From assembly GCA_965219345.1 (NCBI GenBank), contig OZ244732.1, positions 1,248,001-1,312,000 of the forward strand: a DNA stretch of 64,000 nucleotides, given 5' to 3'. The stretch is from Nitrosopumilus sp. (lineage in GTDB: Archaea > Thermoproteota > Nitrososphaeria > Nitrososphaerales > Nitrosopumilaceae). Positions 1-18,108 of the stretch are shown here, piece after piece. The notes under the pieces are model-generated. The model was given only the letters and a program-made list of their open reading frames with translations, was not told where the DNA came from and ran no database searches. The position numbers and the translations under genes were made by a program. The number at the start of each line of letters is the position of its first letter. Positions within the stretch are counted from its first letter, which is position 1.

Positions 1-420
1 TACATTCCAATAACCCCCGAATACAATCACAGTATTTCATCTGCAATGAAAAACACATTGGATTATTTCTTGGAAGAATATTTCTTCAAACCTTCAGCTA
101 TCATCTCTTATTCTGTTGGCCCTTTTGGAGGTATTATTGCTGGAACTCATCTTTGACAGATATTGGCAGGGATGGGCTGGAAAACATGTGGTTTAGCGTA
201 GGTACCAACAACTGGAACTCATCTTCGACAGATATTGGCAGAGATGGGAGCCTCTGTCATTCCATCACAACTCCCAATCTCTAAAGTTCATGAAACATTT
301 GATGATGATGGCAATCTACTTGATGAAAACTATGAGCGAAGATTTTCAAGGTTTCTAGATGAGTTTGAATGGTATGTGTCAGCTCTGGCAAAACAAAGAG
401 AATCTGGGACACCTTATTGA
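1..420 (+). pseudogene. NADPH-dependent FMN reductase (flavodoxin-like), 5' end outside window, disrupted by a 72-bp duplication+insert
   Basis: Frame 1 reads ITPEYNHSISSAMKNTLDY...SYSVGPFGG. Removing one 72-bp unit restores GTHLRQILAEMG...; the extra unit carries TGA and TAG stops. Confidence 0.85.
140..248. repeat. 37-bp direct repeat (140-176, 212-248; 2 mismatches) flanking a 35-bp unique insert
   Basis: ctggaactcatcttYgacagatattggcagRgatggg x2; insert ctggaaaacatgtggtttagcgtaggtaccaacaa. Confidence 0.95.
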
Positions 421-849
421 TTATACTAAATCATTGGTATTTGGAATTACTCTGAAGATTTTAACAGTATAATCCCCTTCAAAGACATTTACAAATTCTC
501 CAGTGTTTGAATCAAGACTTCGTACTCTGAATTTGTATTCATAAGATCCATCTCCTTTTACATCAACTTGTGAAAAGTGAATAGGATCTTCACCCTTGTA
601 CATTTGGATAATTACTGGATATCTTTCAACATAATCTGATGCTGCACCGACTACTGCTCCCCAAGGAAGTTTGTTGTCTTCAGGAATGCTCATTGCAGTG
701 ACCGTCTCTTGCAAACTTATTTCCTCATTAATTGGAGTTACAGTAATGCTGTTTTGATTAGATTCTGCAGAAATATCTGCTGGGATCATCATTATGCCAA
801 ATACTGTCATAATTGATGCCATCAAAACTAAACTTGATTTTATATTCAT
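421..849 (-). CDS. Secreted hypothetical protein (142 aa)
   Basis: Intact ORF, N-terminal hydrophobic signal-like segment, beta-rich body. Confidence 0.75.
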   Translation of the reverse strand: MNIKSSLVLMASIMTVFGIMMIPADISAESNQNSITVTPINEEISLQETVTAMSIPEDNKLPWGAVVGAASDYVERYPVIIQMYKGEDPIHFSQVDVKGDGSYEYKFRVRSLDSNTGEFVNVFEGDYTVKIFRVIPNTNDLV

Positions 850-1189
850 CTATTCCTCCTTTTTCCAAGTCCTTTAAAAAATTTGTTACTAATTTGTTCC
901 AACTTTGTAATTATGGCAATTCTTCTTCTAAATCACAACATGCCTTGTGAACCCATTTTTCATTAGAGTTTTTCAGAATTTCTTTGCCTACTTTGATTGC
1001 CTCACCACATTCTACACATTTTCCGTTAAATCTGGCCTTCATAGTTTTTCTATGATATTATCTAATTTTAACATCTCTTCTAAAAATTTCATAAATGTTA
1101 CAAAATCACCCAAAAAATATCAAGATTTTATCAAAAATAATATGTATATTCCCTTTTGAGTTAGTTGTAAAGAGAAATGATGATTATCA

Positions 1190-1510
1190 TTGCTAAGTGA
1201 AGAGGATCTAATTGCCCGAATTCTAAAAGTTAAAGATCTTAAAGAAAATTGCTTCAAATATCTTGAAGAAAGCTCAAAAGAATTAGGAGTCCCTGTTCCA
1301 ATTGGAGTTGATGCTGGAGGAGATGGCTTGATTCTAAATATTATCTCTGAATGGGAGCCTAGCAAAGTATATTGTGTAAAGTGTAACAGTCTCAAAGGTG
1401 TTAATGTAATGCCAAAGCAGTATTTTGTAACATGTCCTAGTTGCAGGTTTATCTTAGATCAAAAAGAGATAAAGAATAAATGTCCTCATTGTAGTTTTGA
1501 ATTAGTGTAA
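1190..1510 (+). CDS. Small zinc-ribbon protein
   Basis: CVKC, CPSC and CPHC motifs. Confidence 0.65.
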   Translation: MLSEEDLIARILKVKDLKENCFKYLEESSKELGVPVPIGVDAGGDGLILNIISEWEPSKVYCVKCNSLKGVNVMPKQYFVTCPSCRFILDQKEIKNKCPHCSFELV

Positions 1511-1527
1511 TCCACTTGTTATCACCT

Positions 1528-2961
1528 TCAACTTTCACACCTGGCAGTCGTAGTTATGGTCTGTCTCAGCTGACCTGTAAAGTCTTGACTGATGTCACTA
1601 ATTTGAACTTGCAGATAGCCGGTAGCAAAATGTTGAACTGGAATACCGCTTACAAAATGAGCGTCAGTTGCAGACAGTACGAATCTATTCGCGTATGGAA
1701 CGTTCAAACTCTCAAACTCTGCTTGACCAGGGTTGAACGGGGTTATGGTTACCGACTCTCTATCCCCCTCGCTAGTAGAACCGTACCTTGTCTGCCCCAC
1801 ACCCATGATTGACTCATCACGACTGTTCATCCAGTCAGTTGCAGATATGTCCACATCAATCCACGCAGTGCCAGTATTACTAATTTGAAGTGGCTTTGCA
1901 ACCGAAGTATCGCCATATGCCAGAATGCCAAAGTCCAGATCACCTGATATTATGTCAGCTGAGCATACAGGAGCATCAGTAGCGCCAGAGGCATCCAGCG
2001 TGACGTCAATTGTTTTTGATGCAATCTCGTTTAGGGACCCTACGATAGTGCCGTTTGCAGCAACGGTACCGTAAGGCAGACTGGCAGTCGCATTGTATGA
2101 AAAAGAGTCATTACTAAACACGCCTCTGATGACATAATATTTGGTACCATTTTCCAAGGTTACGGGAGTTATGACTGATCCGTCATCTGTCGTCTCAGGA
2201 AGGTCAAGTCCGACTATTGCATTACTTACAGGGAGATCAAAGGAGGGAAATGGAACCGCGAAGTCGAAGAAGCCATCACCGGGAGGTTGCAAACCAATCA
2301 GGTCATCATCACGGTCAAGCACGACTACGCCGGAACTGTTGGAGGACTTTGTAAAGTCATCCCTGAACGTTACGGATGGCTTTTCACCTACCGTAATCTC
2401 CACGGGTATGGTCTTGGTTGCCCCGGTAGTAGTACAGGTCGCATTCCCGGCATTACCGGTATAGGTGAACTCTTTTATGACAATGTCAAACGTATCGATG
2501 CCCGTATATGTAGCACCGGGGATGTAGTCAAATTCGGCAAGCATTGTGGGGTCGTGGCCAAAGTCATCCGTAGCACAGGTTATGGCAGGTACCTGATTGC
2601 CAAGATCATGATAGTCGTATGGTAATATGGGATCTCCGGATGCCACAAGGCTGCCGCCCTCTTCAGTGGTCAGGGGGTCGGGAAACACGGCAATCCAGGG
2701 ATTGTCACTGCCGGGTTGTCTAAGGTTGATGGCATTATGATATGTGGGATGAACACGATCCTCTGTTACCAGGGACAGATCATGGGCAATCGTACCATAT
2801 CCGACATCGTATCTCAGTGTTGGAAGAATCTCCACGTCAGCATCATTGACTGACTGGCCATACGCATGGCCTGCAGTCACTGCTACTGCTACTACTACCA
2901 CTGTTATCGCTGCAGCCATCAGGATCGCCGCAACAATGCCGTCCCTCTTCTTTAGTGTCAC
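1528..2961 (-). CDS. Secreted Thr/Asp-rich beta-sandwich (Ig-like) surface protein, GC-richer than flanks
   Basis: Long hydrophobic signal ending AYG; YIPGATYTGIDTF (Big_9/cadherin-like signature); C-terminal LDFG..ISNTG domain. Confidence 0.75.
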   Translation of the reverse strand: MTLKKRDGIVAAILMAAAITVVVVAVAVTAGHAYGQSVNDADVEILPTLRYDVGYGTIAHDLSLVTEDRVHPTYHNAINLRQPGSDNPWIAVFPDPLTTEEGGSLVASGDPILPYDYHDLGNQVPAITCATDDFGHDPTMLAEFDYIPGATYTGIDTFDIVIKEFTYTGNAGNATCTTTGATKTIPVEITVGEKPSVTFRDDFTKSSNSSGVVVLDRDDDLIGLQPPGDGFFDFAVPFPSFDLPVSNAIVGLDLPETTDDGSVITPVTLENGTKYYVIRGVFSNDSFSYNATASLPYGTVAANGTIVGSLNEIASKTIDVTLDASGATDAPVCSADIISGDLDFGILAYGDTSVAKPLQISNTGTAWIDVDISATDWMNSRDESIMGVGQTRYGSTSEGDRESVTITPFNPGQAEFESLNVPYANRFVLSATDAHFVSGIPVQHFATGYLQVQISDISQDFTGQLRQTITTTARCES

Positions 2962-2972
2962 TGACTGTATAC

Positions 2973-2994
2973 GGGGGGGGGGGGGGGTAAATAA
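2973..2994 (-). promoter_or_regulatory. TATA-like TTATTTA followed by a C15 tract upstream of the 477-aa gene
   Basis: G15 at 2973-2987 on + strand, TAAATAA at 2988-2994, GTG start at 2961. Confidence 0.55.
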
Positions 2995-3021
2995 CCATAT
3001 CGATCAAGGGGAACTGGTAAC

Positions 3022-3240
3022 TTAACGGGAGTTAATTCTTGATGGCAAGTTTCGGGAGCTGGTGTTCTGTATTATTGTATTCCACTTGTTATCCTATCAT
3101 CCTCATTACCGCAATTTGCAGTCCACGATTCTGTATTATTGTATTCCACTTGTTATCCCCCATCATGCGGATTCCTGCCCTGTCTGCCGGTGTGTCTCCA
3201 TCAAGACCGTACTAGTAGACATGACGGGTTCATTATTTGA
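3022..3240 (-). pseudogene. C-terminal fragment of an IS6-family transposase
   Basis: Minus strand reads GLDGDTPADRAGIRMMGDNKWNTIIQN, resembling the TPA..AGI...NKW..IQN tail of archaeal IS6 transposases; boundaries approximate. Confidence 0.55.
3065..3158. repeat. 30-bp perfect direct repeat (3065-3094, 3129-3158) flanking a 34-bp insert
   Basis: ttctgtattattgtattccacttgttatcc x2; insert tatcatcctcattaccgcaatttgcagtccacga. Confidence 0.95.
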
Positions 3241-3246
3241 TCTATC

Positions 3247-3432
3247 TTGGGAAAAAGGAGAGACACTATATTGAACACTGTCTTAGCTCTCGAAAGCCTA
3301 TATGATAAAGTCTCTTTTGTGACTCATCATTCCTATGATAAAGGCCGTGAACATCTCAATGACCTTGAGATTGAACACCTAATCAAAATGACAAATGATG
3401 TCGTCATGAAAATCAAACAGCAAACAAAGTAG
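3247..3432 (+). CDS. Hypothetical protein or 3' fragment
   Basis: Short ORF co-oriented with the downstream Zn-finger genes; 5' end abuts the IS6 fragment. Confidence 0.4.
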   Translation: MGKRRDTILNTVLALESLYDKVSFVTHHSYDKGREHLNDLEIEHLIKMTNDVVMKIKQQTK

Positions 3433-3440
3433 ATGTCAAT

Positions 3441-3605
3441 ATGAACATATGCGTTGAGGGTCACAAGACACGATTTCAGATCACATACAAGTCTGCTAAA
3501 GGCAGAACTTACAAACCAGTATGGTTAATATGCGACATATGTATGCAGAATAAAAAGTGCTTTGGTTCTGAAGATGAAATAGAATCAATTGAGATAATGG
3601 TATGA
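3441..3605 (+). CDS. Small Cys-rich protein (54 aa), missing from ORF track
   Basis: MNICVEGHKTRFQITYKSAKGRTYKPVWLICDICMQNKKCFGSEDEIESIEIMV; ATGA overlap with next ORF. Confidence 0.6.
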   Translation: MNICVEGHKTRFQITYKSAKGRTYKPVWLICDICMQNKKCFGSEDEIESIEIMV

Positions 3606-3754
3606 AAATTTGTCAAGTATGCACTAAATCATTTGCATTTGGGCGAAATGGTTGCTGTTCAATTGATTGCTATTTACAGGAATTACAAACAAAATTAAAT
3701 GAATGCTTTAGAAACGATACCAGTCATACCGAACTTTTGACAAAATTAGTTTGA
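3602..3754 (+). CDS. Small zinc-finger protein (50 aa), missing from ORF track
   Basis: MKICQVCTKSFAFGRNGCCSIDCYLQ... (CxxC...CSxxC treble-clef pattern). Confidence 0.6.
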   Translation: MKICQVCTKSFAFGRNGCCSIDCYLQELQTKLNECFRNDTSHTELLTKLV

Positions 3755-3773
3755 TTTTAATTAAAACAAGATA

Positions 3774-3844
3774 ATGGATCGGATGGGGTTTGTGTTCACT
3801 GTGAGCGCGGATACCTTTTTGATTGTTCTACAAAATTAGACGAC
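3774..3844 (-). repeat. Degenerate copy of the tRNA-Val gene (att-like scar or tRNA pseudogene)
   Basis: Three collinear blocks match the tRNA: 3774-3792 vs 32474-32492 (17/19), 3797-3809 vs 32525-32537 (11/13), 3830-3844 vs 32546-32560 (13/15). Confidence 0.65.
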
Positions 3845-3948
3845 AGAAAGCGATTGGAACGCTTAGAATATTCCTACTCTTTTTTTGTTTTCATCTGTAT
3901 CTGATAATATCTTTCAATATTTTAAAAAATATTTTTGCAAGTTAGAAA

Positions 3949-5079
3949 TCATTTTATCTTTTCAATTATGGGTAAATTAGTAATGGCCATCTTGAGATCA
4001 GGTTCATCAGATTCTGGCCAATTCCAACATCCTTGAATTCTAAGTAATACATTATTGACATCAGTACTTGTAATTTCAATATCTCTAACGTCTATATCAT
4101 ATTCATCACCAAATTGAGAGATTTCATTTATTAGCATATCTTTTAACACTTCTTCATTGATATCTGATGTTAAAATGGCATCCCAATTAGTATGGCAACC
4201 CAGATCATTTTGACGAAATTGAATTGCCCATTCTCGTTCAATTAATTTTGATTTTGTATCTGAACTAACACATGCTATGCGGTTACTTTCAGAATCGTGA
4301 GATTGTTTTAGAATAATATGCAAGTCTGATTTGCAGCGAATAGATTCCTGAAGTATACCAAATTTAGATTATTTGAGAGGGGGAAATGTTTCAGTGACAT
4401 CAGTTAGTTTTCCAATTGTAACTAAAGGATCTTCAGTTATTGCATTCCCTTGTTTGGTTACTGCAAAAGGCCAACTTACATGTATTACACATGATTCATC
4501 TTGAGTCCAAGGTGAATTATTGGATTTAAACAAAATTGCATTAAAATTATAATTACCAGGTCCCAAGGCATTGAAACCAAAAGTCACATCTTTGGTACTG
4601 TTTTTGAAAAATTTTTGGTAATCATATTCAGATGAATTTAATCCAGAAGATGTGGTTTCTGTCAAAACTGCCAAATTTTCATAACCAGTAAATAATCCGC
4701 CATGTATTGTGCCGTCTTGATTTTTCAAGTCAATAAGATATGAAGGGTCTCCAAAACTCGAAGGTAATTCCATTTGCAAATATTCGTATAAAACATCATT
4801 ATGATTTCCAATCACTGCAAAGTAATTGTGTTGAAATCCATCCAAGTCAAGAAGAGAATGATTAGTAGAATTTACCAATTTCACGGAATAATTTGTAAAG
4901 AGAAACATGCACTAATCACTAGATACATCAGTATATTCTAAAATTCCACGTGCAGAAGAATACATGTTATCTGGTAATCGTTTTTCATGTTCTTCACTTG
5001 GAAATCCATATGATTCAGAAGCCATAAACAAAATTCCAGAAAAACCAGTCATAATCAGAAAAATTACAAAATATTTCAT
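3949..5079 (-). pseudogene. Secreted protein with thaumarchaeal PLKQ...C...ACV...KL.ER.W module, broken by two in-frame stops
   Basis: MKYFVIFLIM at 5079 is in frame with ORFs 4369-4908 and 3949-4323; stops at SSD*CM and FPPLK*SKFGI. Confidence 0.8.
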
Positions 5080-5217
5080 GATACACCTATCGAGAGAATA
5101 TGACTGTCATAAAGTGTTCTAATCTTTTGTATTGATTCTATGATGTTTGAACTTATTTTGTACAATGATGAGAATGGTACTAGGCTGATCTTGCTAAATC
5201 TGATGAAAGTTTGGTTT

Positions 5218-5778
5218 TCATTTTCTTTTTCTCAAAAAATAAAACATAATTCCAGTTACCATTATGCCTCCAATGACAACTGGGATTAACTCATATGCAG
5301 TATTGGTAAATGCAATGGGTTTGGTAATAGAATTTCCTTCAACAATGATTGTTTGTCCTGGACCAAATTCTGGACCTATTTTATCTATATTAAATTGAGT
5401 ATGCATGTGATATGTTCCTGCTTCAAGAGCTTTTGCAGATAGTGAATATTCAATCACGGAGTTTCCTGGAATATTAAAAACTACATCTAGCGGTTCTCTT
5501 GCTAACATTTCCCATCTGTTACTTGTATCTGATGACTCCGAAAAAAATGACAGCCATCCTCTAATTTCTTGGTTATTAGAATTAATCAAAACTCCTCTTA
5601 CAGTCAAGGTTTCACCTGTTTGCAAAAATTGTTGGCCAAAGGTTTCATCGCCGATTGTAATTATGGGTGGAGTGAGAGTGGATTTTATACTATGCATCTC
5701 TGCACTTGGAATGGCAAAATCAATACCCTGAAATCCTAAAACTCCCAGTACAAAGATTATGACAAATACCGTTTTCAT
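5218..5778 (-). CDS. Secreted, C-terminally anchored beta-sandwich protein; C-terminal half resembles the archaeal AmoB-type fold (tentative)
   Basis: MKT signal peptide; LEAGTYHMHTQFNIDKIGPEFGPGQTIIVEG; terminal TM helix + RKRK. Confidence 0.6.
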   Translation of the reverse strand: MKTVFVIIFVLGVLGFQGIDFAIPSAEMHSIKSTLTPPIITIGDETFGQQFLQTGETLTVRGVLINSNNQEIRGWLSFFSESSDTSNRWEMLAREPLDVVFNIPGNSVIEYSLSAKALEAGTYHMHTQFNIDKIGPEFGPGQTIIVEGNSITKPIAFTNTAYELIPVVIGGIMVTGIMFYFLRKRK

Positions 5779-5795
5779 TTTTCAACACTCATTTG

Positions 5796-7145
5796 CTAAT
5801 TACTTGCATGTTTAATGATTGGAATGTTGAATGTCCATGGTCCTTCTGCAATCACAATCTTTGGAACCGGCTGATTTTCTATCGGGGTCATATGTGGTGG
5901 TTTTGTCGGAGGTAATGCATCCATTATTGCTCTATCTTGCCTTATCCATTGCACTTCTTCAATGGTGAGAGTAATTTTTTTTGCATTAGAATCTAAAGTT
6001 GGTGAAAAAATATGATGCCAAGAAGAATCTGAGATAATTTCTCTTGTTGCGGGATCTGGTCCGCTTGAACTCCCACCACCTTCACTTTCATTTGTACTGA
6101 CATAGTGATTTCCTAAATCATCTTCCAATGTAATACGTAATATTGGGTGACTATTGTGCATCCTTCCATGCATACGGCGCATTTTATGTATATCCGTAAA
6201 ATCAGATTCTGGAATTTTTATGCGTTGGTGAGAATACCAAATCAACCTCATCATGTTTGAGTAAACTTCCAATGATGGTATTGTAAACTCTGTATCTCCT
6301 ACAAAGAGTTGTTTTGATATGGAAACAACATTGACAAGTTTTTTTGGTGGAAGTCCAAAGGAATCAGCAAAGATCTTTACCAAATCCGCTTCTTTAAACT
6401 CAAATTTTGTATTTTCAGTGATAGTCCAAAAAGGTTTTCCTTCAGGTTTCACATCAAGTATTGCGGACTGAAATGAATTTGGAAATGGGGGAGTATGTGG
6501 ACGGGAACGTTTTTGCATATCATTCTCCATGTTTGGATGTTCTTGATTCTCTTTGTTCTGTAATTCATTCTGCTTTTTTTCATGCCATTCCTTTTGGAAA
6601 GGAATGTTGATTCGGTCATTCTTAGTTACTATAAAACCTATGATTTCAGAATAATCCAGATTTGATTGGTATCCAGACATCATTTTTTCAACTATATTCA
6701 TGGTAGCCAGCGTAACAAGTTCTGCCTCTGTAATATTTTCTGATCTTATCTGTGATTCTGGAAACTTGCTAAGCTTGATTGTTTGCTGCCATTCCCGTGA
6801 AACATCTACATTGCATGAAACTGGTCCATAAATGATGATTTTTGGATGAGGATGTATCTTTTTTCCAGGGTTGTTCAAAAATTCTACTTCCATTTTGTGT
6901 GCAACTATTTCCTGTAAATCTAAATTAGACATGGGCAAACATATTGCAGCAGTATTTTTGGTGATACCGCTTATCTTGACTATGTCTCCTTCTTGTATTC
7001 CAATTTTTTGCATGTATTTTGGTTCTATTTTTACAATTGTTTTACATTGATGTGGATCATTATTTTTTTCAAATCTATCCCTTCTTTTATGCACCACACT
7101 AAATTCAACTGAATTATCATCATTCTCAGTCATTGCGGTGTCCAC
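5796..7145 (-). CDS. Protein with an N-terminal CDC48_N-like double-psi barrel and no ATPase domain
   Basis: VKIEPKYMQKIGIQEGDIVKISG..TAA pattern; no Walker A/B motif. Confidence 0.6.
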   Translation of the reverse strand: MDTAMTENDDNSVEFSVVHKRRDRFEKNNDPHQCKTIVKIEPKYMQKIGIQEGDIVKISGITKNTAAICLPMSNLDLQEIVAHKMEVEFLNNPGKKIHPHPKIIIYGPVSCNVDVSREWQQTIKLSKFPESQIRSENITEAELVTLATMNIVEKMMSGYQSNLDYSEIIGFIVTKNDRINIPFQKEWHEKKQNELQNKENQEHPNMENDMQKRSRPHTPPFPNSFQSAILDVKPEGKPFWTITENTKFEFKEADLVKIFADSFGLPPKKLVNVVSISKQLFVGDTEFTIPSLEVYSNMMRLIWYSHQRIKIPESDFTDIHKMRRMHGRMHNSHPILRITLEDDLGNHYVSTNESEGGGSSSGPDPATREIISDSSWHHIFSPTLDSNAKKITLTIEEVQWIRQDRAIMDALPPTKPPHMTPIENQPVPKIVIAEGPWTFNIPIIKHASN

Positions 7146-7265
7146 AAGTTGATTTATCTAGGACATTCATAAAGTGTTTGCATCTTTTATTCTTTTGAGA
7201 ATGAAGTCATGGATTTGGAATTATTGTATATGCAGTATTGTTGTTGGTACACGGATTATTGATTT

Positions 7266-7823
7266 TCATGGATATTGATCCTCAAGACAATCATAATTTT
7301 TTAAATAATCTAAAATATTTTCAGACACACTATAATTCCCAACTTCACAATAAATAGTCATTTCATGTTCAGAATAATCAAAACCATGACGTATGTTTAA
7401 TGTAATCACGTTATTGTTTGTAAAAGTGTGCATATATCGTATGTATTCTTCATTTGGACTGTAAATTTCGACATCCTCGTATCTATCATAAAATGCAATA
7501 ACTTCAGGATAACCTTCAAATTCATTATTGTAAATATAACTTAAAATGTTAACACGCCAAGTATCCCACTGAACTGCAATTATTTCTGCACCTATTACTG
7601 CAATTATTATTATTATGATCATTTTGATGTTTTTTCTATACTTGATTAACCCAATGATACCGCCAACGCAAATCATGCCCATTCCAAAATGATACCATAG
7701 AAATCCATATTTGTCATATGCTCCTATAACCAACCAAAACATTGTTGCAGAAAACAACCCCATGAGTACTTGGAAAAAAATTGTCAACAAAGATAACTGT
7801 GATAATTTGTATTTAGTTTTCAT
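7266..7823 (-). CDS. Membrane protein (MKT start)
   Basis: Three hydrophobic helices plus soluble tail; ATGA overlaps at both ends. Confidence 0.75.
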   Translation of the reverse strand: MKTKYKLSQLSLLTIFFQVLMGLFSATMFWLVIGAYDKYGFLWYHFGMGMICVGGIIGLIKYRKNIKMIIIIIIAVIGAEIIAVQWDTWRVNILSYIYNNEFEGYPEVIAFYDRYEDVEIYSPNEEYIRYMHTFTNNNVITLNIRHGFDYSEHEMTIYCEVGNYSVSENILDYLKNYDCLEDQYP

Positions 7824-8254
7824 TTCTTTATCAATTTCCTAATAATTGAGGATCTGCACAATAGTATTCCACCAATGGATAATTCAACAATCGGTATTAT
7901 TAACGATATGACTAACTGATCTAAAATGTATGGTTGACTATGATCAATTACAGGTGATGTTGTTATCCAAGATTGTAGAAATGAAATTAGGCTGGCGATG
8001 CCAAAATATACCAATGATCCTGCTATTGCCAAAATAAAATACGGTCTTCTAGGAATGTTTTTTCTCTTTAGAATAAGATAAAGAATTGGAAATAATAATA
8101 ATACTGCAACACCCAATGAATAGCCTACAGATATTACAGCACCAATAATGCGGAATGCTTGTTGTTCTATGTTTTCTGGTGAGTCGTTCCATCCATAAAT
8201 CCAGGGAATCTGTACAAGAAAGAATACAATAATTACCAAAAGTCCAATTTTCAT
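7820..8254 (-). CDS. Membrane protein (MKI start)
   Basis: Four hydrophobic segments; flanked by identical 27-bp sequences at 7817-7843 and 8248-8274. Confidence 0.75.
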   Translation of the reverse strand: MKIGLLVIIVFFLVQIPWIYGWNDSPENIEQQAFRIIGAVISVGYSLGVAVLLLFPILYLILKRKNIPRRPYFILAIAGSLVYFGIASLISFLQSWITTSPVIDHSQPYILDQLVISLIIPIVELSIGGILLCRSSIIRKLIKK

Positions 8255-8272
8255 TTCTTTATCAATTTCCTA

Positions 8273-8662
8273 ATGACTGATGATCTGTATAATAAAAACC
8301 CTGCACCTGTTATTGTTACTTACGACATAACAGTTGAGAATGGAGACGGTAGTGGAAAATATGAAGAAGGATCTGAAGTTACCCTAAGTGCACAAGATAT
8401 TTTAGATGATATGTTTGTGTTCAAAAAGAAACTGGCAGGATGGGAGAATCTACCATATACTACACCAATAGTCACATTTGAGACAGATGATGATATAATA
8501 ACTAAACCCATCTACAAAAATGATTACACCATATTACTTGTAATCATTGGAGCTGGTGCTGGCAGAGGCGGCTTTGTATTTTTGAGAACATGGAGGAAGA
8601 AAAATACACCAAAAAAAACAGATGAATTTTCTGATTATGATGAATTAGAAGATGACTTGTGA
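8273..8662 (+). pseudogene. C-terminal relic of a homolog of the 946-aa surface protein
   Basis: ITVENGDGSGKYEEGSEVTLSA...W...YKNDYTILL aligns with IDVIDGQGSGVYKIGDTVKISA...W...YREDYTYLM. Confidence 0.7.
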
Positions 8663-8822
8663 TGTAGCAAAGCATGGTAAAGTAATCCCATCATTGATGG
8701 TTTTCAACATTTAGCTACTACAAAAGTAAAAGGTATTCAGATAAAGACTATTAACAAATCCTAATGTGTCCATACTTTACAAAGACTGAATCCTTGTCGA
8801 ATTAAATCCCAAGGTATGATGT

Positions 8823-8990: not shown

Positions 8991-9012
8991 AAATGTCATT
9001 CATAATATTGTG

Positions 9013-9079: not shown

Positions 9080-9197
9080 TTTTATTTCAATATGTGGTAT
9101 TCATCTCATTTTTGTCATCGCATTATGAAAGATTGTCACTTCATCTTCAATAACTGCTTGAACTAGTCTTCAACAACAAGTTACAGGTGACTGTTTT

Positions 9198-10076
9198 TCA
9201 AAGAAAATTACGAAATATCTTGAGATATCTTTTCATGAACCATTGTAAAAATATAATGTCGTTGTTTTTGACACTTGATCTTTCAAGTGCAGTATAGTAT
9301 GATCTTCTATCTGTATACTCTATGTCAAACATTGGATAATCAAATCGATTTAAAACATAATTCATCATGAGTCTTGATATTCTACCGTTTCCGTCACCAA
9401 ATGGATGTATTGTCACAAATTTTAGGTGGACTAGAGCTGCTAGTTCTACAGGATTTAGTTCTTTTTTATTTTTCTTATACCAAACAAAGAAACTTTTCAG
9501 TAAAACGGGAACGGCCTCTGATTTTGGTGGGACAAATTTACTTCCACCTATGCGCACTTCAAAGTCACGTATCTGTCCTGCAATGTCTGATTTTGTTTCA
9601 CCAAAGAGTAATTTGTGCCACGACAAAATTGTTCCTAGTGACATGTCCTGTTTTTTTTGCATGATTTGCAAAAATAGTTTTTGATGTATCCTGGTTTCAA
9701 TCATATCACTTGCAGGTTTGTTTGATGGAGTTATTCCATCCATGATAAGATCAGCGGTTTCTCGTAGGGTCAAGGTAGAGCCCTCTATTTTTTGTGTATT
9801 ATAGGTGAATCGAATAGAAAACTCTTCAATTTCCTTTTTTTGTACAGACTTTGGAATTTTAGTTCTTGTTTTTTTGTAGTTCTTCTGGACTTGTTCCATC
9901 TTGGAAACCCAATCTTCCCTGTAAAATCCTAACAGAAAGTTATATTTTATTTGTTCAATGTTTTCTGGAATCTCTTTACCAATGTAAATTTCCTTTTGTC
10001 TTTTCTGGTTTCGTATTTTGTGCTGAAGGTAGTAAAATATACGGTTACCTCGCTTTCTTTTTACTATAGATACCAC
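9198..10076 (-). CDS. Fic family protein
   Basis: HPFGDGNGRISR catalytic motif; TQKIEG inhibitory (S/T)xxxE(G/N) motif. Confidence 0.95.
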   Translation of the reverse strand: MVSIVKRKRGNRIFYYLQHKIRNQKRQKEIYIGKEIPENIEQIKYNFLLGFYREDWVSKMEQVQKNYKKTRTKIPKSVQKKEIEEFSIRFTYNTQKIEGSTLTLRETADLIMDGITPSNKPASDMIETRIHQKLFLQIMQKKQDMSLGTILSWHKLLFGETKSDIAGQIRDFEVRIGGSKFVPPKSEAVPVLLKSFFVWYKKNKKELNPVELAALVHLKFVTIHPFGDGNGRISRLMMNYVLNRFDYPMFDIEYTDRRSYYTALERSSVKNNDIIFLQWFMKRYLKIFRNFL

Positions 10077-10232
10077 AAATGTATTGCCCAGTGCAAATTA
10101 ATAAATGTATTAAATATGTACTAAATGTACTGTGCAATAACAAAATAACATTTGAAAAGTTTTAAGATGGATACTTTGAATGCAATAACGTGTATTTTGT
10201 CTCTTTTTAATTGATTCATCTCTTGAATTTAC

Positions 10233-11452
10233 TTGAAAAGAATACTATTTGCAATTGCCGTAATGTGTTTGATTTCTACCTTTATCGCCCCTGTTTTTGC
10301 ATTTAACGTCTCAGAGATAAAAAGCAAATATCAGGAGAATCATGGTGGTCAGGAAAAAATCTCGCAGAAGGCGACTATTTCATTTATGAAATATGTAATT
10401 CTGAATCATTTACAAAATCAACTTTATCCGGACACTGCTGTGACATTTCACTAGAGTTTGTCTCACTGTTACGGACCAGCACTGGTGGCATGTGGATAGT
10501 TCAAGCACAAATTGTTACAGAAGTGGGAGAAAAAAATATGCCATATTTCAAATTGACGAGACAACATTTGACGTCACCACTTATGACAGAACCGCGATAG
10601 AGTATGCCGATTCAGTTCATGATGCAATATTTTACATGAAGGATTTTGCTAATTCTCAAACAAAAAAAAACACCTAAAAATTGGCAACAGTTGGGGAGCT
10701 ATGGAATTCTACGCTACGCCAGATCCTGAGATGACAGTCAGAGCGAAAACAACTACTACAATACTTGACGAGCAGATTTCAGTATATGATATAGGATTTG
10801 TCATACTTGAACAAACATCAGTTCTAATTTCAAAAGACATTCCTTTTCCACTAGGTGCAACAGTCTATGACTCTCACAGAATAATTCCTACCACACCAGG
10901 CAAAACGGAGAATCAACATCCACAAGACCATATGTGTCAGTTCCAACGGACATAACATATGCTGCATTAATTGAAAATATCGATACACCAACTGTTGTAA
11001 ACATTCCGGACTTTGCAGGAAAATACCAATACAATGGAGGAAAGCTCACCGATGTTTCATCATTGCTTCCAAACGAGATAGGTTTTGCAGATGAGATAAC
11101 AATGTCAGGCGATGCCGATGCATCTATTGCAGACGGCATCTCCATTACTGGCAGCAGTGGCAGGATAATCATAGAGCTAAATGACTATGCAGACCAAACC
11201 ATGCTTTTAGAGTCTGTAGTGCTTCTAGGTTCCCAATTTGAGGTTGTAGAATCACCTTATGACTTGATTTCTTTGCCATATGTAAATTCAAAGGGTTATC
11301 TGCTTTATTTCTGTAATTGTAATCCTGCTACTCTTGATTTCTATGTATCCACATCATCTATTTTTGCCAAAAATGGGGTTGATTCTATATGTATAAAACC
11401 AAATTTACATTTAACCTCAAATTACAAGTTTGAGTTTCTCTATCATGTCTAA
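10233..11452 (+). pseudogene. Fragmented relic cluster, including a homolog of the N-terminus of the 740-aa protein
   Basis: 10934-11452 (PNEIGFAD...VVESPYDLI...CNCNPAT) aligns with PNILGYTD...LVESPYNLI...CTCNPAT of 25919-28141; upstream ORFs are short and frameshifted. Confidence 0.7.
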
Positions 11453-11597
11453 GGCATAAAATAAAAAATCATAATGTCTGAATTTTATTAAAGTATGATT
11501 CACAAAAATATCCGAGTGACATTAAACAAAGTTGGGAGAATAATCCTAAAAGTATTACATATCATAATTTCTTTAAATCTAAACTTTTTTATTATTT

Positions 11598-12485
11598 ATG
11601 ATATGTATTATATTCATGGTAAGTATAGTAAAAGAAAGAGGGTTTTACTATCTAAAACATCACATACAGGCAAAAGAAAAGAGAAAGTATTTGGGCAAGG
11701 CAATCCCAAAAAACATAGAATCTCTCAAAAAGGAGTTTCTAAAACAATTTTACTGTGAGGACTGGGATGAAAGGATACAGTCAATTGGCAAAAAATACCA
11801 AAAAGAGCTAAAAAAAATACCAAAGTCAATTCAACTGAAAAATTTTGAGAGTTTTGGAATTGCATTTACTTACAATACCCAGAAAATTGAAGGTTCCAGC
11901 CTCACAAAAATAGATACCAAAGACCTGCTTGTATTTGGAGTGACTCCCGCAAAGAAATCACAGATTGATACCATAGAGACAAAAAAGCACTATGAATTAT
12001 TCATGAAACTAGTAACATCAAAAAAAATACCAAAGCTTACAAAAAAAACGATACTTCAATGGCACAGGGAGATTTTTGATCAAACAAAAATAGGAGAGGC
12101 AGGAAGCATCAGATCATACGGGGTGGAAGTCACCACTAATGAGAAAATAGACTTTACTCCAGTTGCAGAAATTCCAAAAAAATTAACAGAATTTTTTGAC
12201 TGGCTTTACAAATATGATGGAGAGAAAAATACTGCAGAGTTTGCATGTATGGCACACTACAAGTTTGTATCAATACACCCGTTTGGAGATGGAAATGGCA
12301 GAATTTCACGACTCATCATGAACTATATTTTGCTGAAATACAATTATCCATTATTGATGATAAAAAGTACAGACCGAAGGCCTTATTTCAAGTCATTAGA
12401 GAAATCTCAATTAAACCATGATGAGATTCATTTTCTGAAGTGGTTTATGAAGTATTACATCAAAGAAAATAAGCAATATTTGTAA
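11598..12485 (+). CDS. Fic family protein (likely start ATG 11616, MVSIVK)
   Basis: HPFGDGNGRISR and TQKIEG motifs; paralog of 9198-10076. Confidence 0.95.
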   Translation: MICIIFMVSIVKERGFYYLKHHIQAKEKRKYLGKAIPKNIESLKKEFLKQFYCEDWDERIQSIGKKYQKELKKIPKSIQLKNFESFGIAFTYNTQKIEGSSLTKIDTKDLLVFGVTPAKKSQIDTIETKKHYELFMKLVTSKKIPKLTKKTILQWHREIFDQTKIGEAGSIRSYGVEVTTNEKIDFTPVAEIPKKLTEFFDWLYKYDGEKNTAEFACMAHYKFVSIHPFGDGNGRISRLIMNYILLKYNYPLLMIKSTDRRPYFKSLEKSQLNHDEIHFLKWFMKYYIKENKQYL

Positions 12486-12717
12486 GAACCCTTTTGTGAA
12501 TTATATCATATTCAAAAAAAAAAAAAAATAATTCATTACTAATTCTTTAGACATTCTAAAATCCACGCTCTTATGCAAATTAGTATCTGTAATGCATGAT
12601 ACTAGACTCTTATATTCTCAAAGATGAACTTGGAAAACTATACTGACGAGCAAAAGTTCATGAGATCAAACATGTTAGACGGCAACACATTTTGATCACG
12701 TCCCACTACGCATTACA

Positions 12718-13344
12718 ATGCCCGCAGTAAAATCCGAAGACCTGAAGAAGGCGTACAAGAAGGAAAGGGATCCCAGGGTCAAGATCAGGATGGCCGCAGT
12801 AAACATGGTGTGCATGAACAATGAGAGCATCCAGCATGCGGCAGACTCGCTCATGCAGTGTCCCAACTGGGTCTCCTTCTGGGTGGAACGCTTCCGGGAG
12901 GGCGGCATCGACACCCTCCGGGATCTTCCCAAGAGCGGCAGGCCACCGAAGGTCAGGCCCGAAGACATTGAAGAGACAATGTCCGGGGCAGGCAGCATCA
13001 TTACTCCCCCGCAGCTGAGGGAACGTGTCCGCAAGATGCACGGCATAACATACCACATTACAAGCGCCAGAGGATAATGCGCAGGCTGGGCATGTCTGCC
13101 AAGACGGCAAGACAGGTCCACAAAACAGGGCAGGGACAGACGAAATCAGAAGGTGGCAGCACAACGCAAAGAGGCGCGCATATCGCGCCTGGAATCGAGG
13201 GGTTTTGTCGTCGTAGTCTTTGACGAGTCCATATTCATAGACGACCCGGCATCGGGAACAAAGTACTGGTCCCCGAAGGCCAGCCCATAGTCACCACATA
13301 CAAGGGCAGACACGGCAGGGTCGTGGCGTACGGTTCCATCGCGA
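12718..13344 (+). pseudogene. IS630-family transposase, frameshifted and truncated by IS5
   Basis: HTH region W..RF..GG...L.D.P.SGRP; later frame FDESIF (first catalytic Asp); GC-rich. Confidence 0.85.
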
Positions 13345-14358
13345 CTTGCTTTGTTTCCCAACACCAACTAATCATTAACACCATCTAACCATTTGAAACA
13401 ATTTTGATTTTTCTACTGTATTACAATCATCTTGTTGTACAGACAGACCTTCATTTTCAACTCATGAATCATGTTTTCTCTCCTGTGCGATGTGACATGC
13501 TCTCCAAACATTCTTTTGAATGCAGAAAACACTCCTTCTACGATCCACCTATCGCCATAGCTTACGCTGTTCTTCCACAAATCATAATTGAAAATTTGGG
13601 CCAGTACTGCCTTTCTTCTTGGATAGCAATCAGTAGTAACTGATGAGTTCTTTCTTGTCTTGATTCCTGGAATTATGTTACCATGGTACAAATATGAAAA
13701 ATTATCTTTTGTGTCATATGCACCATCAGCTAGTGTCTTAGTCACATTTCCAAATTGCTTTGACTGCTCAACTAGTGATACAAAAGATTTGGAATCATGG
13801 GAATGATCATCTGTAATTTCCAAACCTGTAATCTGTTTTGATTTTACATCTGCTGCCACATGAATCTTGAGAAATCCTCTTCTTTTCTGCCATTTCTGTC
13901 TCATCCACTCACCCCTGTCTGCAACCTTGATTCCTGAACTATCTATTGCAATGACAATGTCTTTTCCCAGCTTTGGGCTCATCTTGATGTCAAGCTTGTT
14001 TACTCTTTTCCAGATGGCAGAATATGTTGGTGTTTCTGTCTTGGATTTGAGATGTGATTTTATCAGACCTTCAGTTTGTCTATATGGAAGATGCAGATAT
14101 GCATGGCAGTATCCCAGTGCTTCCATGAATGATTCAGGATAAACATACTGGTGTCCTTCTTTTCCACGGTTCATTTCTTTGAGTTCTTTTGTCCATGAGT
14201 CTATTGCGTCAAAAGACAGCATGATTTCACCTCTTCTTACTAGTGTTTGGTTGTATTTTTTCCAGTTTCTACTCATGGAATGATACAAAATGTTCTGATC
14301 CAAACCTTGAGTGATGAAATTAATCAGATAAACTAGTCAGGTTAGGAAACACAGCAAG
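13345..14358 (-). mobile_element. IS5-family insertion sequence
   Basis: 18-bp imperfect TIRs cttgctttgtttcccaac / gttaggaaacacagcaag (16/18); no target duplication. Confidence 0.85.
13413..14303 (-). CDS. IS5-family DDE transposase
   Basis: YNQTLVRRG, IAIDSSG, LADGAYD and RWIVEGVFS motifs. Confidence 0.92.
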   Translation of the reverse strand: MDQNILYHSMSRNWKKYNQTLVRRGEIMLSFDAIDSWTKELKEMNRGKEGHQYVYPESFMEALGYCHAYLHLPYRQTEGLIKSHLKSKTETPTYSAIWKRVNKLDIKMSPKLGKDIVIAIDSSGIKVADRGEWMRQKWQKRRGFLKIHVAADVKSKQITGLEITDDHSHDSKSFVSLVEQSKQFGNVTKTLADGAYDTKDNFSYLYHGNIIPGIKTRKNSSVTTDCYPRRKAVLAQIFNYDLWKNSVSYGDRWIVEGVFSAFKRMFGEHVTSHRRENMIHELKMKVCLYNKMIVIQ

Positions 14359-14438
14359 CAAAGTGGTTTTGTTATTTTTGAAAGTACTGTAACTAGATTA
14401 TTTTTTGAGATGTCAGTCTCATAATTTTCGTAAAGCAT
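14359..14438 (-). pseudogene. Truncated partner gene (possible AbiEii-like nucleotidyltransferase) cut by IS5
   Basis: MLYENYETDISKNNLVTVLSKITKPL overlaps the end of the upstream gene and ends at the IS5 TIR. Confidence 0.45.
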
Positions 14439-15024
14439 CTTTCTCCATCTTTTCTAGTAACATATCTCCTGCTTCAATGCATACACCTCTCTCACTATAT
14501 AAATCCAATATTATTTGAGGTATAGATACGAGCATTAAATCATCTACTTTGAATGATTTGTAAAATACATGATCATCACCAATTAAAATTCTCATATTTC
14601 CTTTACCGACCAGTCCATTTTGCACTAACGATTCATGCCAACGTAGTTTGTCTGATGCATGTATGTAAATATCAGTTCGTGATGGAAATAGATAATTTTG
14701 TATTTTGTTGTCTGCCTGGTATGTTGTCAGGGCATATTCCAGATTGGTTTTTCTTAATAATTCCAATGGTCTTTGTATCATATATTCTCGATATTCTGGA
14801 ATTGGTTGCCATTGTTTCCACCACATCATTAACGATTTGAAATTCCTTACTCTAGTTTTTTGGATTATTCCTTGTTTTTCTAGTTTTTCTAATAATTTGT
14901 GAATCCACGGATATCCACTATCTGCCAGCTTTGATATTCGATATTTTGTCAATGTTCCATTGGGCTCATTAAATAGTATTCTGGCTACTCTACCCTTGAT
15001 ATTAGTTCGCGTTTCCTTTTTCAT
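14419..15024 (-). CDS. AbiEi-like (type IV TA) antitoxin or wHTH regulator
   Basis: N-terminal wHTH; YALT...DIYI...VSIPQIILDLY pattern. Confidence 0.6.
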   Translation of the reverse strand: MKKETRTNIKGRVARILFNEPNGTLTKYRISKLADSGYPWIHKLLEKLEKQGIIQKTRVRNFKSLMMWWKQWQPIPEYREYMIQRPLELLRKTNLEYALTTYQADNKIQNYLFPSRTDIYIHASDKLRWHESLVQNGLVGKGNMRILIGDDHVFYKSFKVDDLMLVSIPQIILDLYSERGVCIEAGDMLLEKMEKDALRKL

Positions 15025-15050
15025 TCTATTACTTTATTTTTACTAACCGT

Positions 15051-15118
15051 TTCTAATAAATTTATATCGTTTTATTTTAAATAATAGTTCTAATAGATAT
15101 ATATTGTTTTATTTTAAA
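15051..15118. repeat. 31-bp imperfect tandem repeat (37-bp period) in the promoter of the AbiEi-like gene
   Basis: ttctaataaatttatatcgttttattttaaa vs ttctaatagatatatattgttttattttaaa (28/31). Confidence 0.6.
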
Positions 15119-15209
15119 AGAACATTGTAAAAACGATATTTTATACTTGAATTATGTATAGCAGATCAAAAAATGTATGTATTTTTTCTTTAAATATAGA
15201 TTAGTGTCT

Positions 15210-16150
15210 TAAAAGTTAACACTTTTTCACGATCTCTTATTTTACCGTTCAGTCTTTCTATTTTGTTATTGTTCTTGTCACCTTTCAAGTGAATGTGTCT
15301 AACGTGGTTTGTATCATTGCCAAACACTTTCTTACTTGATTTCATGTACGCTGGCAATCAATCTTTTATGAAATTTCTAGGATTCTTGCCAGCTTGCTCT
15401 TTAGTCATGGTCAATAGATTGTCTGCATTATGATGAAATTTGTTGTCTGCAGCATCAGAAGCCAACCAAAATCTAGAATCATCATCCATTGAGGCAAAGA
15501 GATAACACATTGTTTGCCGTTGATTTTTACCCATGCCTCGTCTGCCCTGAACCAGTTACCAACTCTAGGCACAATGTCATTAAGATACCTTGATGTCATT
15601 TTGGAATATTTTTCAATCCAGTTGTAAATACTGCAATAACTTACCTCAATCTCTTCTTTGCTCAAAACAGTCTGCAATGTCTCTAACTGACATTTCAGTA
15701 TAATACATCTGCAAGGCCCTAGTAATGATAACATCCTTTGATCTCATTTTTTCAAATCCGAAATTGGCAGTAAATCGCTTCTTGCAGTCAAGACATTTGT
15801 AACTCTGCTTATTACCTTATTTGGATTTTCTCATACCTCATTTTTTGATACTGCCTGAATCACAATACTTGCATAATGATAACTTGTTTCGTTCCATGAT
15901 TCTGAATGTATTGTTACGATAGCACTTGTTTTTTCGGATTATCTCCAACACGATTTTGATGTGCTTGCAATCATCTTTTCTAACCTGATGATCTTTACAT
16001 TCACAGATTAATCCATCTCCAATCTTTGACACAACGTAAAAATTTTCAGGATTGGCCTGTGATCTTACTTAACTTGTCATGGTCAAATTGAGAACAGTAT
16101 CCTTTTGACTCCATTATTTGTTTGGCTCACTGTGTTCGTGAATTCATGCA
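15210..16150 (-). pseudogene. IS6-family transposase with SWIM and Zn-ribbon N-terminus, multiply frameshifted
   Basis: CECKDH...CKHI (SWIM), CKYCDS...YKCLDCKKRF, WFRADE, NNKIERLNGKIRDREKV; boundaries approximate. Confidence 0.85.
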
Positions 16151-16493
16151 TGATTCACCTCGAAAATTAATATAGAATTAAAATAATTTGTAATGCGGAG
16201 GGAAAAAGAAGGCTCAGTTGTCACGGCTGTTTGTTTCTTTTTTTCTTCTTGTAGTTTTGATTGTTTTTGTAGTCATTGCTAGCACAGCAAAAGATTTGAT
16301 ACAAGCATCATGATCACAGCGTGTCACAGCGTGCCACAACTGTTGAATCCTGCATCGTTCTTGGTTCGTGTTGAATTAAGAATTTGGTGTTTATTTCCGG
16401 CTAGATAATGCATTTGATGAGGCCAACGCCAACTAGCCTCACGGTGGATTAGTCAGTGTTGAAGAATAAAGTAGAAAGTCGACACGGAAATTT

Positions 16494-16703
16494 TCATGGA
16501 GTGTTGTTTACATCGCCTTTTTGTATCGACTGCCTCCTGAGCTCGGCGGCAACAGCCTTTTGCACCTCCGGCGGCAGATCCCCGTGATGAAGCAGCGACA
16601 CTCGCAGGCCCATTATCACGTCGTGTACGCTCAAAAAGTCGTTGTCCATATGCGGTGCAAACGTGTTCTTGAACGTCTGATTAGATGAATCTTGGAGGGT
16701 CAT
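16494..16703 (-). CDS. Hypothetical protein
   Basis: Overlaps the end of the upstream ORF; last of three coupled ORFs. Confidence 0.4.
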   Translation of the reverse strand: MTLQDSSNQTFKNTFAPHMDNDFLSVHDVIMGLRVSLLHHGDLPPEVQKAVAAELRRQSIQKGDVNNTP

Positions 16704-17133
16704 TCTTTTTCAACACCACTATAGATAGTTGTCCATACCTTCGTTTATACTTTAATGCCTTCTCACGCTCGATCCCGGAGATTGCTATGGTGACATCTCT
16801 GTATGTGATCCCGTTAATGTCAGTCCATTGGCCCAGCATTACGCCTGCTCCCTGTTTGCGAAACCTGACATACTCATTTCTAGTGTGCTCATCAAAGTTC
16901 TTCTTGTTGTTGGTGACAGAGATAAGGTAGACTGGCTGTCCACCATCTGTAAGTCTTTCAAAAAGTGTGTCCCTTTCGTCTGGCTTTGCCAGATCTATGC
17001 AGGATCCAATGCTCGGATGATATGTTACGGATTTTGAACCGTGCTGCCGGATTGACTTTACTCCAGCATCGTATTCCCTGCCGTATTCGTGAGGATCGTG
17101 TTGTTGCTTGCGATCCAAACCTGGCCCACTCAC
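16681..17133 (-). CDS. Hypothetical protein (150 aa)
   Basis: Intact ORF; GTGA overlap with upstream gene. Confidence 0.65.
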   Translation of the reverse strand: MSGPGLDRKQQHDPHEYGREYDAGVKSIRQHGSKSVTYHPSIGSCIDLAKPDERDTLFERLTDGGQPVYLISVTNNKKNFDEHTRNEYVRFRKQGAGVMLGQWTDINGITYRDVTIAISGIEREKALKYKRRYGQLSIVVLKKNDPPRFI

Positions 17134-17297
17134 GCTACAATCTTTGCAAGCTTTTTGAGTTCTTCTTTGGTCAATGTCAGCCTAAACAGCACTGCGTCTG
17201 GATTCTTTGCATTCTTGGCCTGCGGATAAAAACTAATCACAAACTTGGAGCCGTCCTTTTTTATCTCGTATGGCCTTCCGCCGATGGTATCTCGCAT
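17130..17297 (-). CDS. Small basic protein (55 aa), missing from ORF track
   Basis: MRDTIGGRPYEIKKDGSKFVISFYPQAKNAKNPDAVLFRLTLTKEELKKLAKIVA. Confidence 0.65.
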   Translation of the reverse strand: MRDTIGGRPYEIKKDGSKFVISFYPQAKNAKNPDAVLFRLTLTKEELKKLAKIVA

Positions 17298-17351
17298 GAT
17301 GATATGAAACAGACGAGATTTATAGAGTTATTGTATTATCTAAAATTTTAG

Positions 17352-18108
17352 TCAGATCTCCATTACTGTCACTGTATCGTTTTGATGTATGGCATAATGG
17401 TGTAATGCGGTATCAAGACAGATGTGGTATTTGTTTTGCTGGACATAGAGCATAGCAAATCTTACGAGAGTAACAGGTATCAAGACAGATGTGGTATTTG
17501 TTTTGCCGTACCTCTGGTGCTCTGGTATGGCCAAATATCTGCCTGATTGCTGGAATGTCTGTAAACTCGTCATAGTCACACCATACGATTCCGCCGTTTT
17601 TGTGCGGACCACCGCGCGATATTCCGACCTGAAAGAATTTTTGCAGACGATTCACATCATCAATATGTCTTAGACCCTCAACTGACTGTGCCATGAACTC
17701 TTTCAGACTCGTAGTTCCATATTCCTCAAAGAACTGCCTGCTTACTCCTGCATGGGTACAAAGATAGCTGCCAACATAGCAGTACGAAGTCATTTTCGTC
17801 CATGGTATGTCATACGAACCTATGATGTATCTTTTGAACTCGAAGAATCCAGAGCAGCGAAATGCAGGATTGCCAGTCATGTAGTGCAGATCATGGTTTC
17901 CAACCAAGTGAACTCTGTCTTGCTGTTCTAGTGATGTGACAAGCCATCTTGCAGTATTGTGAGTGTCCAAGGCCGTCTCGTAGAACGCATCAAAGTAATC
18001 TCCCAGAAATACAGTCTTGTCCAGGGATTCCCTTTCTATGATGGACTCTGCAGTCTGGAATTTTGTGTGGATGTCAGGTATTATGAGGGTTTTAGCGTCG
18101 TGTGCCAT
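17352..18108 (-). pseudogene. Calcineurin-like metallophosphoesterase, C-terminus frameshifted by a 67-bp duplication+insert
   Basis: DIH, GDYFD, GNHD, HAG and GHT motifs; removing one unit restores HICLDTALHHYAIHQNDTVTVMEI*. Confidence 0.88.
17409..17506. repeat. 31-bp perfect direct repeat (17409-17439, 17476-17506) flanking a 36-bp insert
   Basis: ggtatcaagacagatgtggtatttgttttgc x2; insert tggacatagagcatagcaaatcttacgagagtaaca. Confidence 0.97.

Follow-up and report, generated by a model that had tools for sequence, protein, structure and literature searches.

We analysed a window of 64,000 nucleotides (nt), C1:1248001-1312000, from the 1.87-Mb chromosome (C1) of a member of the genus Nitrosopumilus (G000), whose genome also comprises a second contig of 41.6 kb (C2) and has a guanine-plus-cytosine (GC) content of 36%. 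The window carries three lesions in which a short piece of host sequence stands twice around an unrelated insert: one in an FMN reductase gene (site 1), one beside multi-copy DNA (site 2) and one in a metallophosphoesterase gene (site 3). An earlier note on this DNA had described these three repeat-insert-repeat structures and the absence of similarity between their repeats, and in both respects it was right; the repeats are also unrelated to the CRISPR repeat native to this genome. The three lesions belong to a chromosome-wide set of 38 units, and we consider it very likely that they arose by natural off-target (ectopic) full-site spacer integration carried out by CRISPR adaptation integrases. 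A Cas1-type integrase had been proposed as their writer in the earlier note, and the length peaks, cas genes and empty sites presented below all agree with that proposal.

We scanned the genome for mismatch-tolerant direct repeats at all periods from 30 to 200 nt and retained only isolated, non-tandem pairs. The 48 pairs form sharp rather than broad length peaks, 27 of them having periods of 71–76 nt and nine of 64–68 nt, with 12 scattered. Three units lost to the complexity filter were put back and one weak pair was removed, giving a curated set of 38. Class A comprises 29 units, including site 1, with periods of 70–76 nt, inserts of 35–40 nt and duplications of 32–38 nt (36 nt in 11 units and 37 nt in nine). 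Class B comprises nine units, including sites 2 and 3, with periods of 64–68 nt and duplications of 27–32 nt (36 nt in one case). The two copies are identical in 23 of the 38 units, and the whole set contains 20 mismatches in 1324 nt. Two units share their insert with another unit and are thus paralogous copies of an earlier event, so that the set represents 36 independent events.

Each unit is built of a unit-specific sequence, derived from a gene or a mobile element, that is present twice, and in all 38 the similarity ends at the boundaries of the duplication. The faint similarity that had been thought to run about 6 nt beyond the 3′ end of the first copy amounts to 0/6, 0/6 and 3/6 matches at the three window sites and is at chance level over the full set. 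Periods divisible by three occur in 12 of the 38 units, which is the chance level, and the units are therefore not coding repeats. Tandem Repeats Finder does not report sites 1–3, as expected for two copies parted by unrelated sequence. We also considered whether the units are bona fide CRISPR arrays, with at least three conserved repeats, a leader and cas genes, and rejected this, as they are two copies of a unit-specific sequence; the only true arrays in the genome are C1:1641728-1653821 and the type I-B remnant described below. No unit has grown beyond one spacer, with the exception of one duplicated unit: C1:1432749-1432926 (period 73) has three repeats and the identical spacer twice, the product of a later tandem duplication of an ectopic unit. 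Arrays might begin to grow by recombination in this way.

The geometry of class A is that of the native type I-G system, and the geometry of class B is that of the I-B remnant. In the I-G array (C1:1641728-1653821), 164 repeats of 36 nt alternate with 163 spacers, 150 of which are 35–40 nt long, and its periods are mostly 71–76 nt. Before it lie a 561-residue Cas4/Cas1 fusion and then Cas2, which matches its profile with 36.9 bits. The fusion matches NF049935 with 754 bits against a cut-off of 560 bits and looks intact, aligning along its full length (residues 13–561, 551 bits) with PDB entry 7mi4, which we take to be the Geobacter sulfurreducens type I-G Cas4/Cas1–Cas2 integrase. Csb2, Cas7g, Cas8g/Csx17 and Cas3g are encoded past the array on the other strand, and by its gene content the I-G system is complete. 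In the I-B remnant (C1:1123013-1123344), a 77-residue Cas1b fragment runs directly into a 30-nt repeat, which a 38-nt spacer separates from a degenerate one (period 68 nt); judged from its sequence, the locus is dead and decayed. The relative G161 has an array built from this 30-nt repeat, its periods being 66–68 nt. The earlier note had suggested locating cas1, cas2 and cas4 and comparing lengths: the genes are present, and the native repeats and spacers agree in length with the duplications and inserts.

Two side observations concern these loci. One spacer of the I-B-like array of G161 (G161:C1:2066063-2066297) consists of 29 nt of I-G repeat plus 9 nt beyond it, a piece that one CRISPR system has taken from another's array. 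In the source genome, the I-G adaptation genes (C1:1634428-1641549) are found a few kb after the genes of ribosomal proteins S8 and L6, with a methyltransferase-like open reading frame (ORF) in between; the cas island may interrupt a ribosomal protein cluster.

The Cas4/Cas1 fusion and the Cas1b fragment are the only Cas1-family matches in the genome, which bears on whether a casposase, or another transposase or integrase inserting short DNA (casposon-derived, or resembling a miniature inverted-repeat transposable element), made the units. Nitrosopumilus does host family 1 casposons, and their casposase can integrate oligonucleotides of at least 7 nt in vitro (PMC8464041). The same paper describes a Cas1-family integrase that shares target duplication and a molecular ruler with our units; in Ca. 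Nitrosopumilus koreensis, however, the family 1 casposon duplicates 13 bp at one specific site and carries kb-sized cargo with terminal inverted repeats (PMC8464041), whereas the duplications here measure 27–38 nt and the inserts are unique, mutually unrelated and lack common terminal repeats. The casposon alternative raised in the earlier note, for which this genome has no casposase gene, is thus highly improbable.

Unoccupied counterparts of the targets were found for 18 of the 38 units: nine in G007, the closest relative (∼87% identity), ten in paralogues within the genome (three units have both), and one each in G155 (site 3) and G048 (site 2). All three window sites therefore have the uninterrupted homologue whose existence the earlier note had asked about. 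At site 1, the G007 orthologue is continuous, with a single 37-mer and no insert, and the matches of G012 overlap in the same way. The single copy of G007 resembles copy 2, the ancestral-like one; copy 1, which differs from it by two mismatches in 37 nt, later acquired a C-to-T change, creating a TGA codon, and an A-to-G change. At site 2, both flanks map to one locus of G048 with an overlap of 29 nt (query positions 51–134 and 170–243). At site 3, G155 has exactly one 31-mer without insert, and all aligned columns but one are identical.

The earlier note had also stated that removal of one unit restores the reading frame and that the lesions inactivate their genes, and each statement holds in part. 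At site 1, the 72-nt unit preserves the frame and brings two in-frame stops into it (TGA at 154–156 and TAG at 199–201); its excision converts stop-to-stop frames of 126 and 95 residues into one of 190 residues that is colinear with the G007 orthologue, and inactivation is clear here. At site 3, restoration is seen at the DNA level, but the lesion alters only about the last 19 residues relative to the intact 239-residue frame of G155, so inactivation is not evident. At site 2, excision yields no longer ORF (82 residues become 55). Over the whole set, the stop-to-stop excision test gives a clear ORF gain at only a minority of sites, and many of the units are in frames that are short or were broken already. 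The gene names FMN reductase (PF03358, 46.5 bits, window 1–153) and metallophosphoesterase (PF00149, 33.1 bits, ORF 17413–18108 on the minus strand) were upheld by our Pfam search. The 'IS6 fragment' at site 2 was not: ORF 3062–3274, which overlies the site, matches no Pfam family, and the left flank is multi-copy DNA.

For eight inserts, a match was found at a distant locus of the chromosome, over the full length in seven cases and exact in six; for instance, the 39-nt insert at 88 kb exactly reproduces 523291–523329, and the 37-nt one at 916 kb exactly reproduces 1636412–1636448. All eight source loci have flanks unrelated to the integration site, and local template switching is therefore excluded as their origin. 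More generally, short duplications with an inserted filler can arise by local repair that needs no integrase, be it slippage during replication, template switching or end-joining that takes up filler DNA. Yet no insert matches nearby DNA, the eight traced sources are far away, duplications and inserts are tightly held at two lengths, and the nearest relative, which lacks an intact Cas1, has about one unit in 1.88 Mb. We regard local repair as a very improbable source of the units.

The self-derived share is eight of 36 independent events (∼22%), whereas none of the 163 native spacers has a self match in its own genome. Paralogous copies aside, the inserts are unrelated to one another, and the remainder have no source match. 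The 28 non-self inserts resemble native spacers in mean GC content (44% and 42%, respectively), while self-derived inserts (37%) are close to the genome. The inserts also share the end signature of native spacers. Counting 3′-end bases on both strands, which makes knowledge of orientation unnecessary, we found A at position −1 in 138 of 326 native and 32 of 72 ectopic ends, C at −4 in 112 of 326 and 26 of 72, and C at −3 in 89 of 326 and 25 of 72 (P < 0.005 versus composition in each case).

None of the inserts of sites 1–3 matches its own genome. The site 1 insert has no match with up to three mismatches in 150 other genomes of the genus, and viral and metagenome contigs contain no exact match to its 29-nt core. 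The 28-nt core of the site 2 insert has no exact match in viral contigs, and the 29-nt core of the site 3 insert has none in viral contigs (exact) or in genome contigs. Queried against the same 150 genomes, the native array matched mostly other arrays; the five short non-array matches that we inspected are repeat-like and not spacers.

In the mechanism that we propose, Cas1–Cas2 carrying spacer-sized DNA would attack a non-CRISPR target on its two strands, at points separated by one repeat length, and gap repair would duplicate what lies between the cuts, leaving pseudo-repeat, spacer and pseudo-repeat. Foreign DNA would supply prespacers, as would the cell's own chromosome in at least eight of the 36 independent events; the pieces of self origin probably persist since the pseudo-repeats would not be processed into CRISPR RNA (crRNA). 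We infer the enzyme behind each unit, and the timing. Class A would be made by the resident intact I-G module (Cas4/Cas1 fusion plus Cas2). Class B was probably made by an I-B module that survives only as the truncated cas1b and its repeat.

Read data support site 1. We aligned Logan contigs of runs X5, X7, X9 and X10; runs X5–X8 contain 88–95% of sampled words, and the sponge-metagenome runs X1–X4, with 5–6%, were left out. An 8118-nt contig of X5 and a 12,213-nt contig of X7 span window positions 1–495 without gaps, with zero and two other letters, respectively. X5 is possibly the source sample and thus not independent, whereas X7 represents a slightly different strain with two single-nucleotide polymorphisms (SNPs). 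X10 carries the insert of the unit at 1335276 in a copy of an insertion sequence (IS).

X5 and X7 also reveal a unit that the assembly lacks. A target at 12867–12900 is single at both assembly copies, and a 16-nt motif of the insert found in the runs is absent from the assembly; the depth at the joint is 29.7 in X5 and 88.9 in X7, contig depths that are not shares of cells. This unit suggests recent or polymorphic activity. The target lies in an IS-like element of ∼710 nt (window 12639–13346) with about five copies in the genome, of which the copy at C1:1335276 bears a fixed ectopic unit.

A number of observations weigh against the integration of spacers by the CRISPR integrases as we propose it. 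Sites 2 and 3 are spanned by no contig among the matches listed, so that, among these, the read support sought in the earlier note is for site 1; coverage by X9 and X10 is low or absent at both sites, and X5 and X7 contain a low-depth joint from 3030 to 3129. The dependence on an integrase is correlative: there are 38 units here, five in 0.8 Mb of G051, which has I-G, and about one in the 1.88 Mb of G007 without intact Cas1, and this control comparison consists of two relatives that, as kin, are not independent. One G051 candidate is a coding 72-nt tandem repeat, and a few of the 20 units of the source genome without an empty site could likewise be false. The targets resemble the native repeat ends weakly (P = 0.03), and a preference for hairpin-prone targets is not supported, the targets being no more structured than random 36-mers (P = 0.12). 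Protospacers of the native spacers were found neither in the own genome nor, with the array as query, in the phage collection, and three native spacer cores have no viral match. The eight self protospacers show no common flank; TTN, reportedly a motif of the protospacer-adjacent type in the Geobacter I-G system, is present at two of the eight.

We also considered the possibility that the units are artefacts of assembly or sequencing, such as chimeric reads or loops in a de Bruijn graph where a repeat has k-mer size. At sites 2 and 3, the duplications (30–31 nt) are indeed near a common k-mer size, and the run contigs break around site 2. Site 1, on the other hand, is gapless in the contigs of two runs, one of them with SNPs, and X10 carries the insert of another unit. 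An artefact would not yield native CRISPR lengths, copy pieces of 32–39 nt from loci hundreds of kb away, share the native end bias or avoid conserved DNA, and we consider this explanation extremely unlikely.

The remaining counterpoints concern class B. The I-B system is dead, yet the copies are perfect in five of the nine class B units, including site 3, which lies in an island of 97–99% identity to G155; and G051, which showed only I-G in the survey of 81 sampled genomes, has one 29/63 candidate. Both points would fit a single live I-G integrase that made all units, measuring about half a helical turn less for class B, with no involvement of I-B. The same is true of two paralogous targets that each received two insertions, one duplicating 36 nt and the other 30–31 nt: in the pairs 404166 (36 nt)/1448839 (31 nt) and 1824847 (36 nt)/1483340 (30 nt), one boundary agrees within 1–2 nt while the other differs by 5–7 nt. 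However, the native I-G array contains no 30-nt repeats, class B flanks show no decayed extension to 36 nt, and the class B periods of 64–68 nt equal those of the I-B remnant and the I-B-type array of G161. A single integrase is accordingly possible but somewhat doubtful, and an I-B origin of class B is the reading that we prefer. An unoccupied paralogue of one of the two hot spots is present at C1:332797-333324.

Among the relatives, Cas4g/Cas1g scores above the cut-off in seven of 81 sampled genomes of the genus. The whole chromosome of G007, scanned without the complexity filter, gave 29 isolated pairs with scattered periods; these include one unit-like pair (38/72), one ambiguous pair in an inverted repeated IS element and one 28-nt CRISPR-like remnant. 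The five units in the scanned 0.8 of 2.39 Mb of G051 are all of class A. Some of their inserts are self-derived, and that of 351131 is a multi-copy sequence; the rejected tandem-repeat candidate is 307648.

The targets share a weak sequence motif. An orientation-free expectation-maximisation (EM) search gave 5.46 bits at the boundaries against 3.46 ± 0.19 in 40 random sets; we used the pooled statistics alone, since the orientations assigned per site are unreliable (hot-spot partners came out opposite). A G stands in the 5′ position at 25 of the 72 ends of duplications (P = 0.005).

The surviving units are found mostly in dispensable DNA. Homologues in G007 exist for 62.6% of the chromosome, but only three of the 38 units, including site 1, lie in that part (binomial P = 2.5e-12), and 14 of the 38 are in multi-copy DNA. 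This bias fits selection against core-gene insertions; alternatively, the integrase may prefer accessory DNA as a target. Three units in 17.5 kb, which the earlier note had regarded as a high natural rate, is about the average for accessory DNA (35 units in ∼0.7 Mb). Clustering of units is not significant (16 of 37 gaps below 20 kb versus 12.5 expected, P = 0.11), and the three units of the window therefore form no special cluster.

We tentatively entertain a broader reading, plausible but held with reserve, in which the I-G module of this lineage is naturally and currently promiscuous and five points hold together. Spacer writing would be chromosome-wide, at a rate that leaves about 20 fixed units per Mb; new units would still be arising in cultured or sampled populations, as might be read from the unit present in two runs and not in the assembly; the units would constitute an unselected ledger of captures, given their self-derived share compared with the array; the module would act as an insertional mutagen held by selection to the flexible genome; and the units would be raw material for new CRISPR arrays.

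The mechanism itself is already known; what is new is the natural setting, the scale, the two geometries and the self-derived record. Nivala, Shipman and Church (2018, Nat Microbiol) reportedly found that type I-E Cas1–Cas2 of E. coli carries out off-target 'neo-CRISPR' integration. Our units are like those in having inserts of spacer length, duplications of native repeat length and a scatter over the chromosome. The E. coli events arose in the laboratory with up-regulated Cas1–Cas2, whereas here we see 38 fixed events in a wild archaeon with an I-G fusion, two duplication lengths (36 and ∼30 nt) and eight self-derived inserts. The Geobacter system of 7mi4 has a full-length homologous fusion and the same order of cas4/1, cas2 and array; it differs in that our host is an archaeon, its interference genes lie beyond the array on the other strand, and off-target activity is deduced from the products. 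Evidence for natural off-target integration in two other species was termed circumstantial in a citing preprint (10.1101/148544). For Pyrococcus furiosus Cas1–Cas2, off-target integration in vitro was observed at repeat-like sites, with the terminal repeat nucleotides G1 and C30 being important, in a plasmid assay with a 30-nt repeat (PMC6698737). The G-rich 5′ ends of our duplications and the weak target motif are similar, while the integrations described here are chromosomal, inherited and under selection. In the literature that we covered, supplements aside, ectopic spacers arising naturally across a genome are reported neither for Nitrosopumilus nor for type I-G.

Off-target integration has been known from over-produced E. 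coli proteins and from experiments in vitro. About forty natural events with exact junctions make the in vivo target preferences of a Cas4/Cas1 fusion measurable from sequence, and the contrast between units and array makes the self-derived share measurable before selection. The mutational burden of an adaptation module becomes visible in the FMN reductase pseudogene, the altered phosphoesterase, the hits in IS elements and the near-exclusion from conserved DNA. The units also provide a natural setting for the idea that new CRISPR arrays stem from such events. For annotation, they account for puzzling frameshifts and for 'repeat-spacer-repeat' false positives of CRISPR finders.

The features of the window discussed here are collected in Table 1.

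Table 1. Genes, duplicated targets and inserts in the window (positions are those of the window)
Feature	Position	Strand	Remarks
FMN reductase gene, NADPH-dependent, 3′ part, now pseudogene	1..420	+	Frame 1; 5′ end beyond the window edge
Site 1, copy 1 of target duplication	140..176		37 nt, two changes relative to copy 2 and the orthologue
Site 1, insert, spacer-like	177..211		35 nt, source not found
Site 1, copy 2	212..248		Class A geometry, period 72
Site 2, copy 1	3065..3094		30 nt, 100% identity
Site 2, insert	3095..3128		34 nt, source not found
Site 2, copy 2	3129..3158		Class B geometry, period 64
Unoccupied target within IS-like multi-copy element	12867..12900		In X5 and X7, 34 nt duplicated around a 39-nt insert, period 73
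Metallophosphoesterase gene	17352..18138	−	Last ∼19 codons exchanged for out-of-frame sequence from the unit
Site 3, copy 1	17409..17439		31 nt, exact
Site 3, insert	17440..17475		36 nt, source not found
Site 3, copy 2	17476..17506		Class B geometry, period 67

Site 3 is adjoined by an ORF of 738 residues (window 18160–20376) with an Mrr N-terminal domain, an HNH-associated repeat and DUF7669, which suggests a defence or mobile island. Homopolymer runs of 17 G (window 2975–2991) and 10 C (near C1:431940) mark edges of repeated elements and stand beside ectopic units. The first 20 kb of C2, a plasmid, have no match among plasmids. Elsewhere in the window, two 43-nt tandem copies at 28545–28630 are 95% alike, each with an internal inverted repeat (GTTGTTGCC...GGCAACAAC). 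At 50116–50369, an 18-nt unit occurs in 14 perfect head-to-tail copies (Tandem Repeats Finder score 508), flanked by decaying copies.

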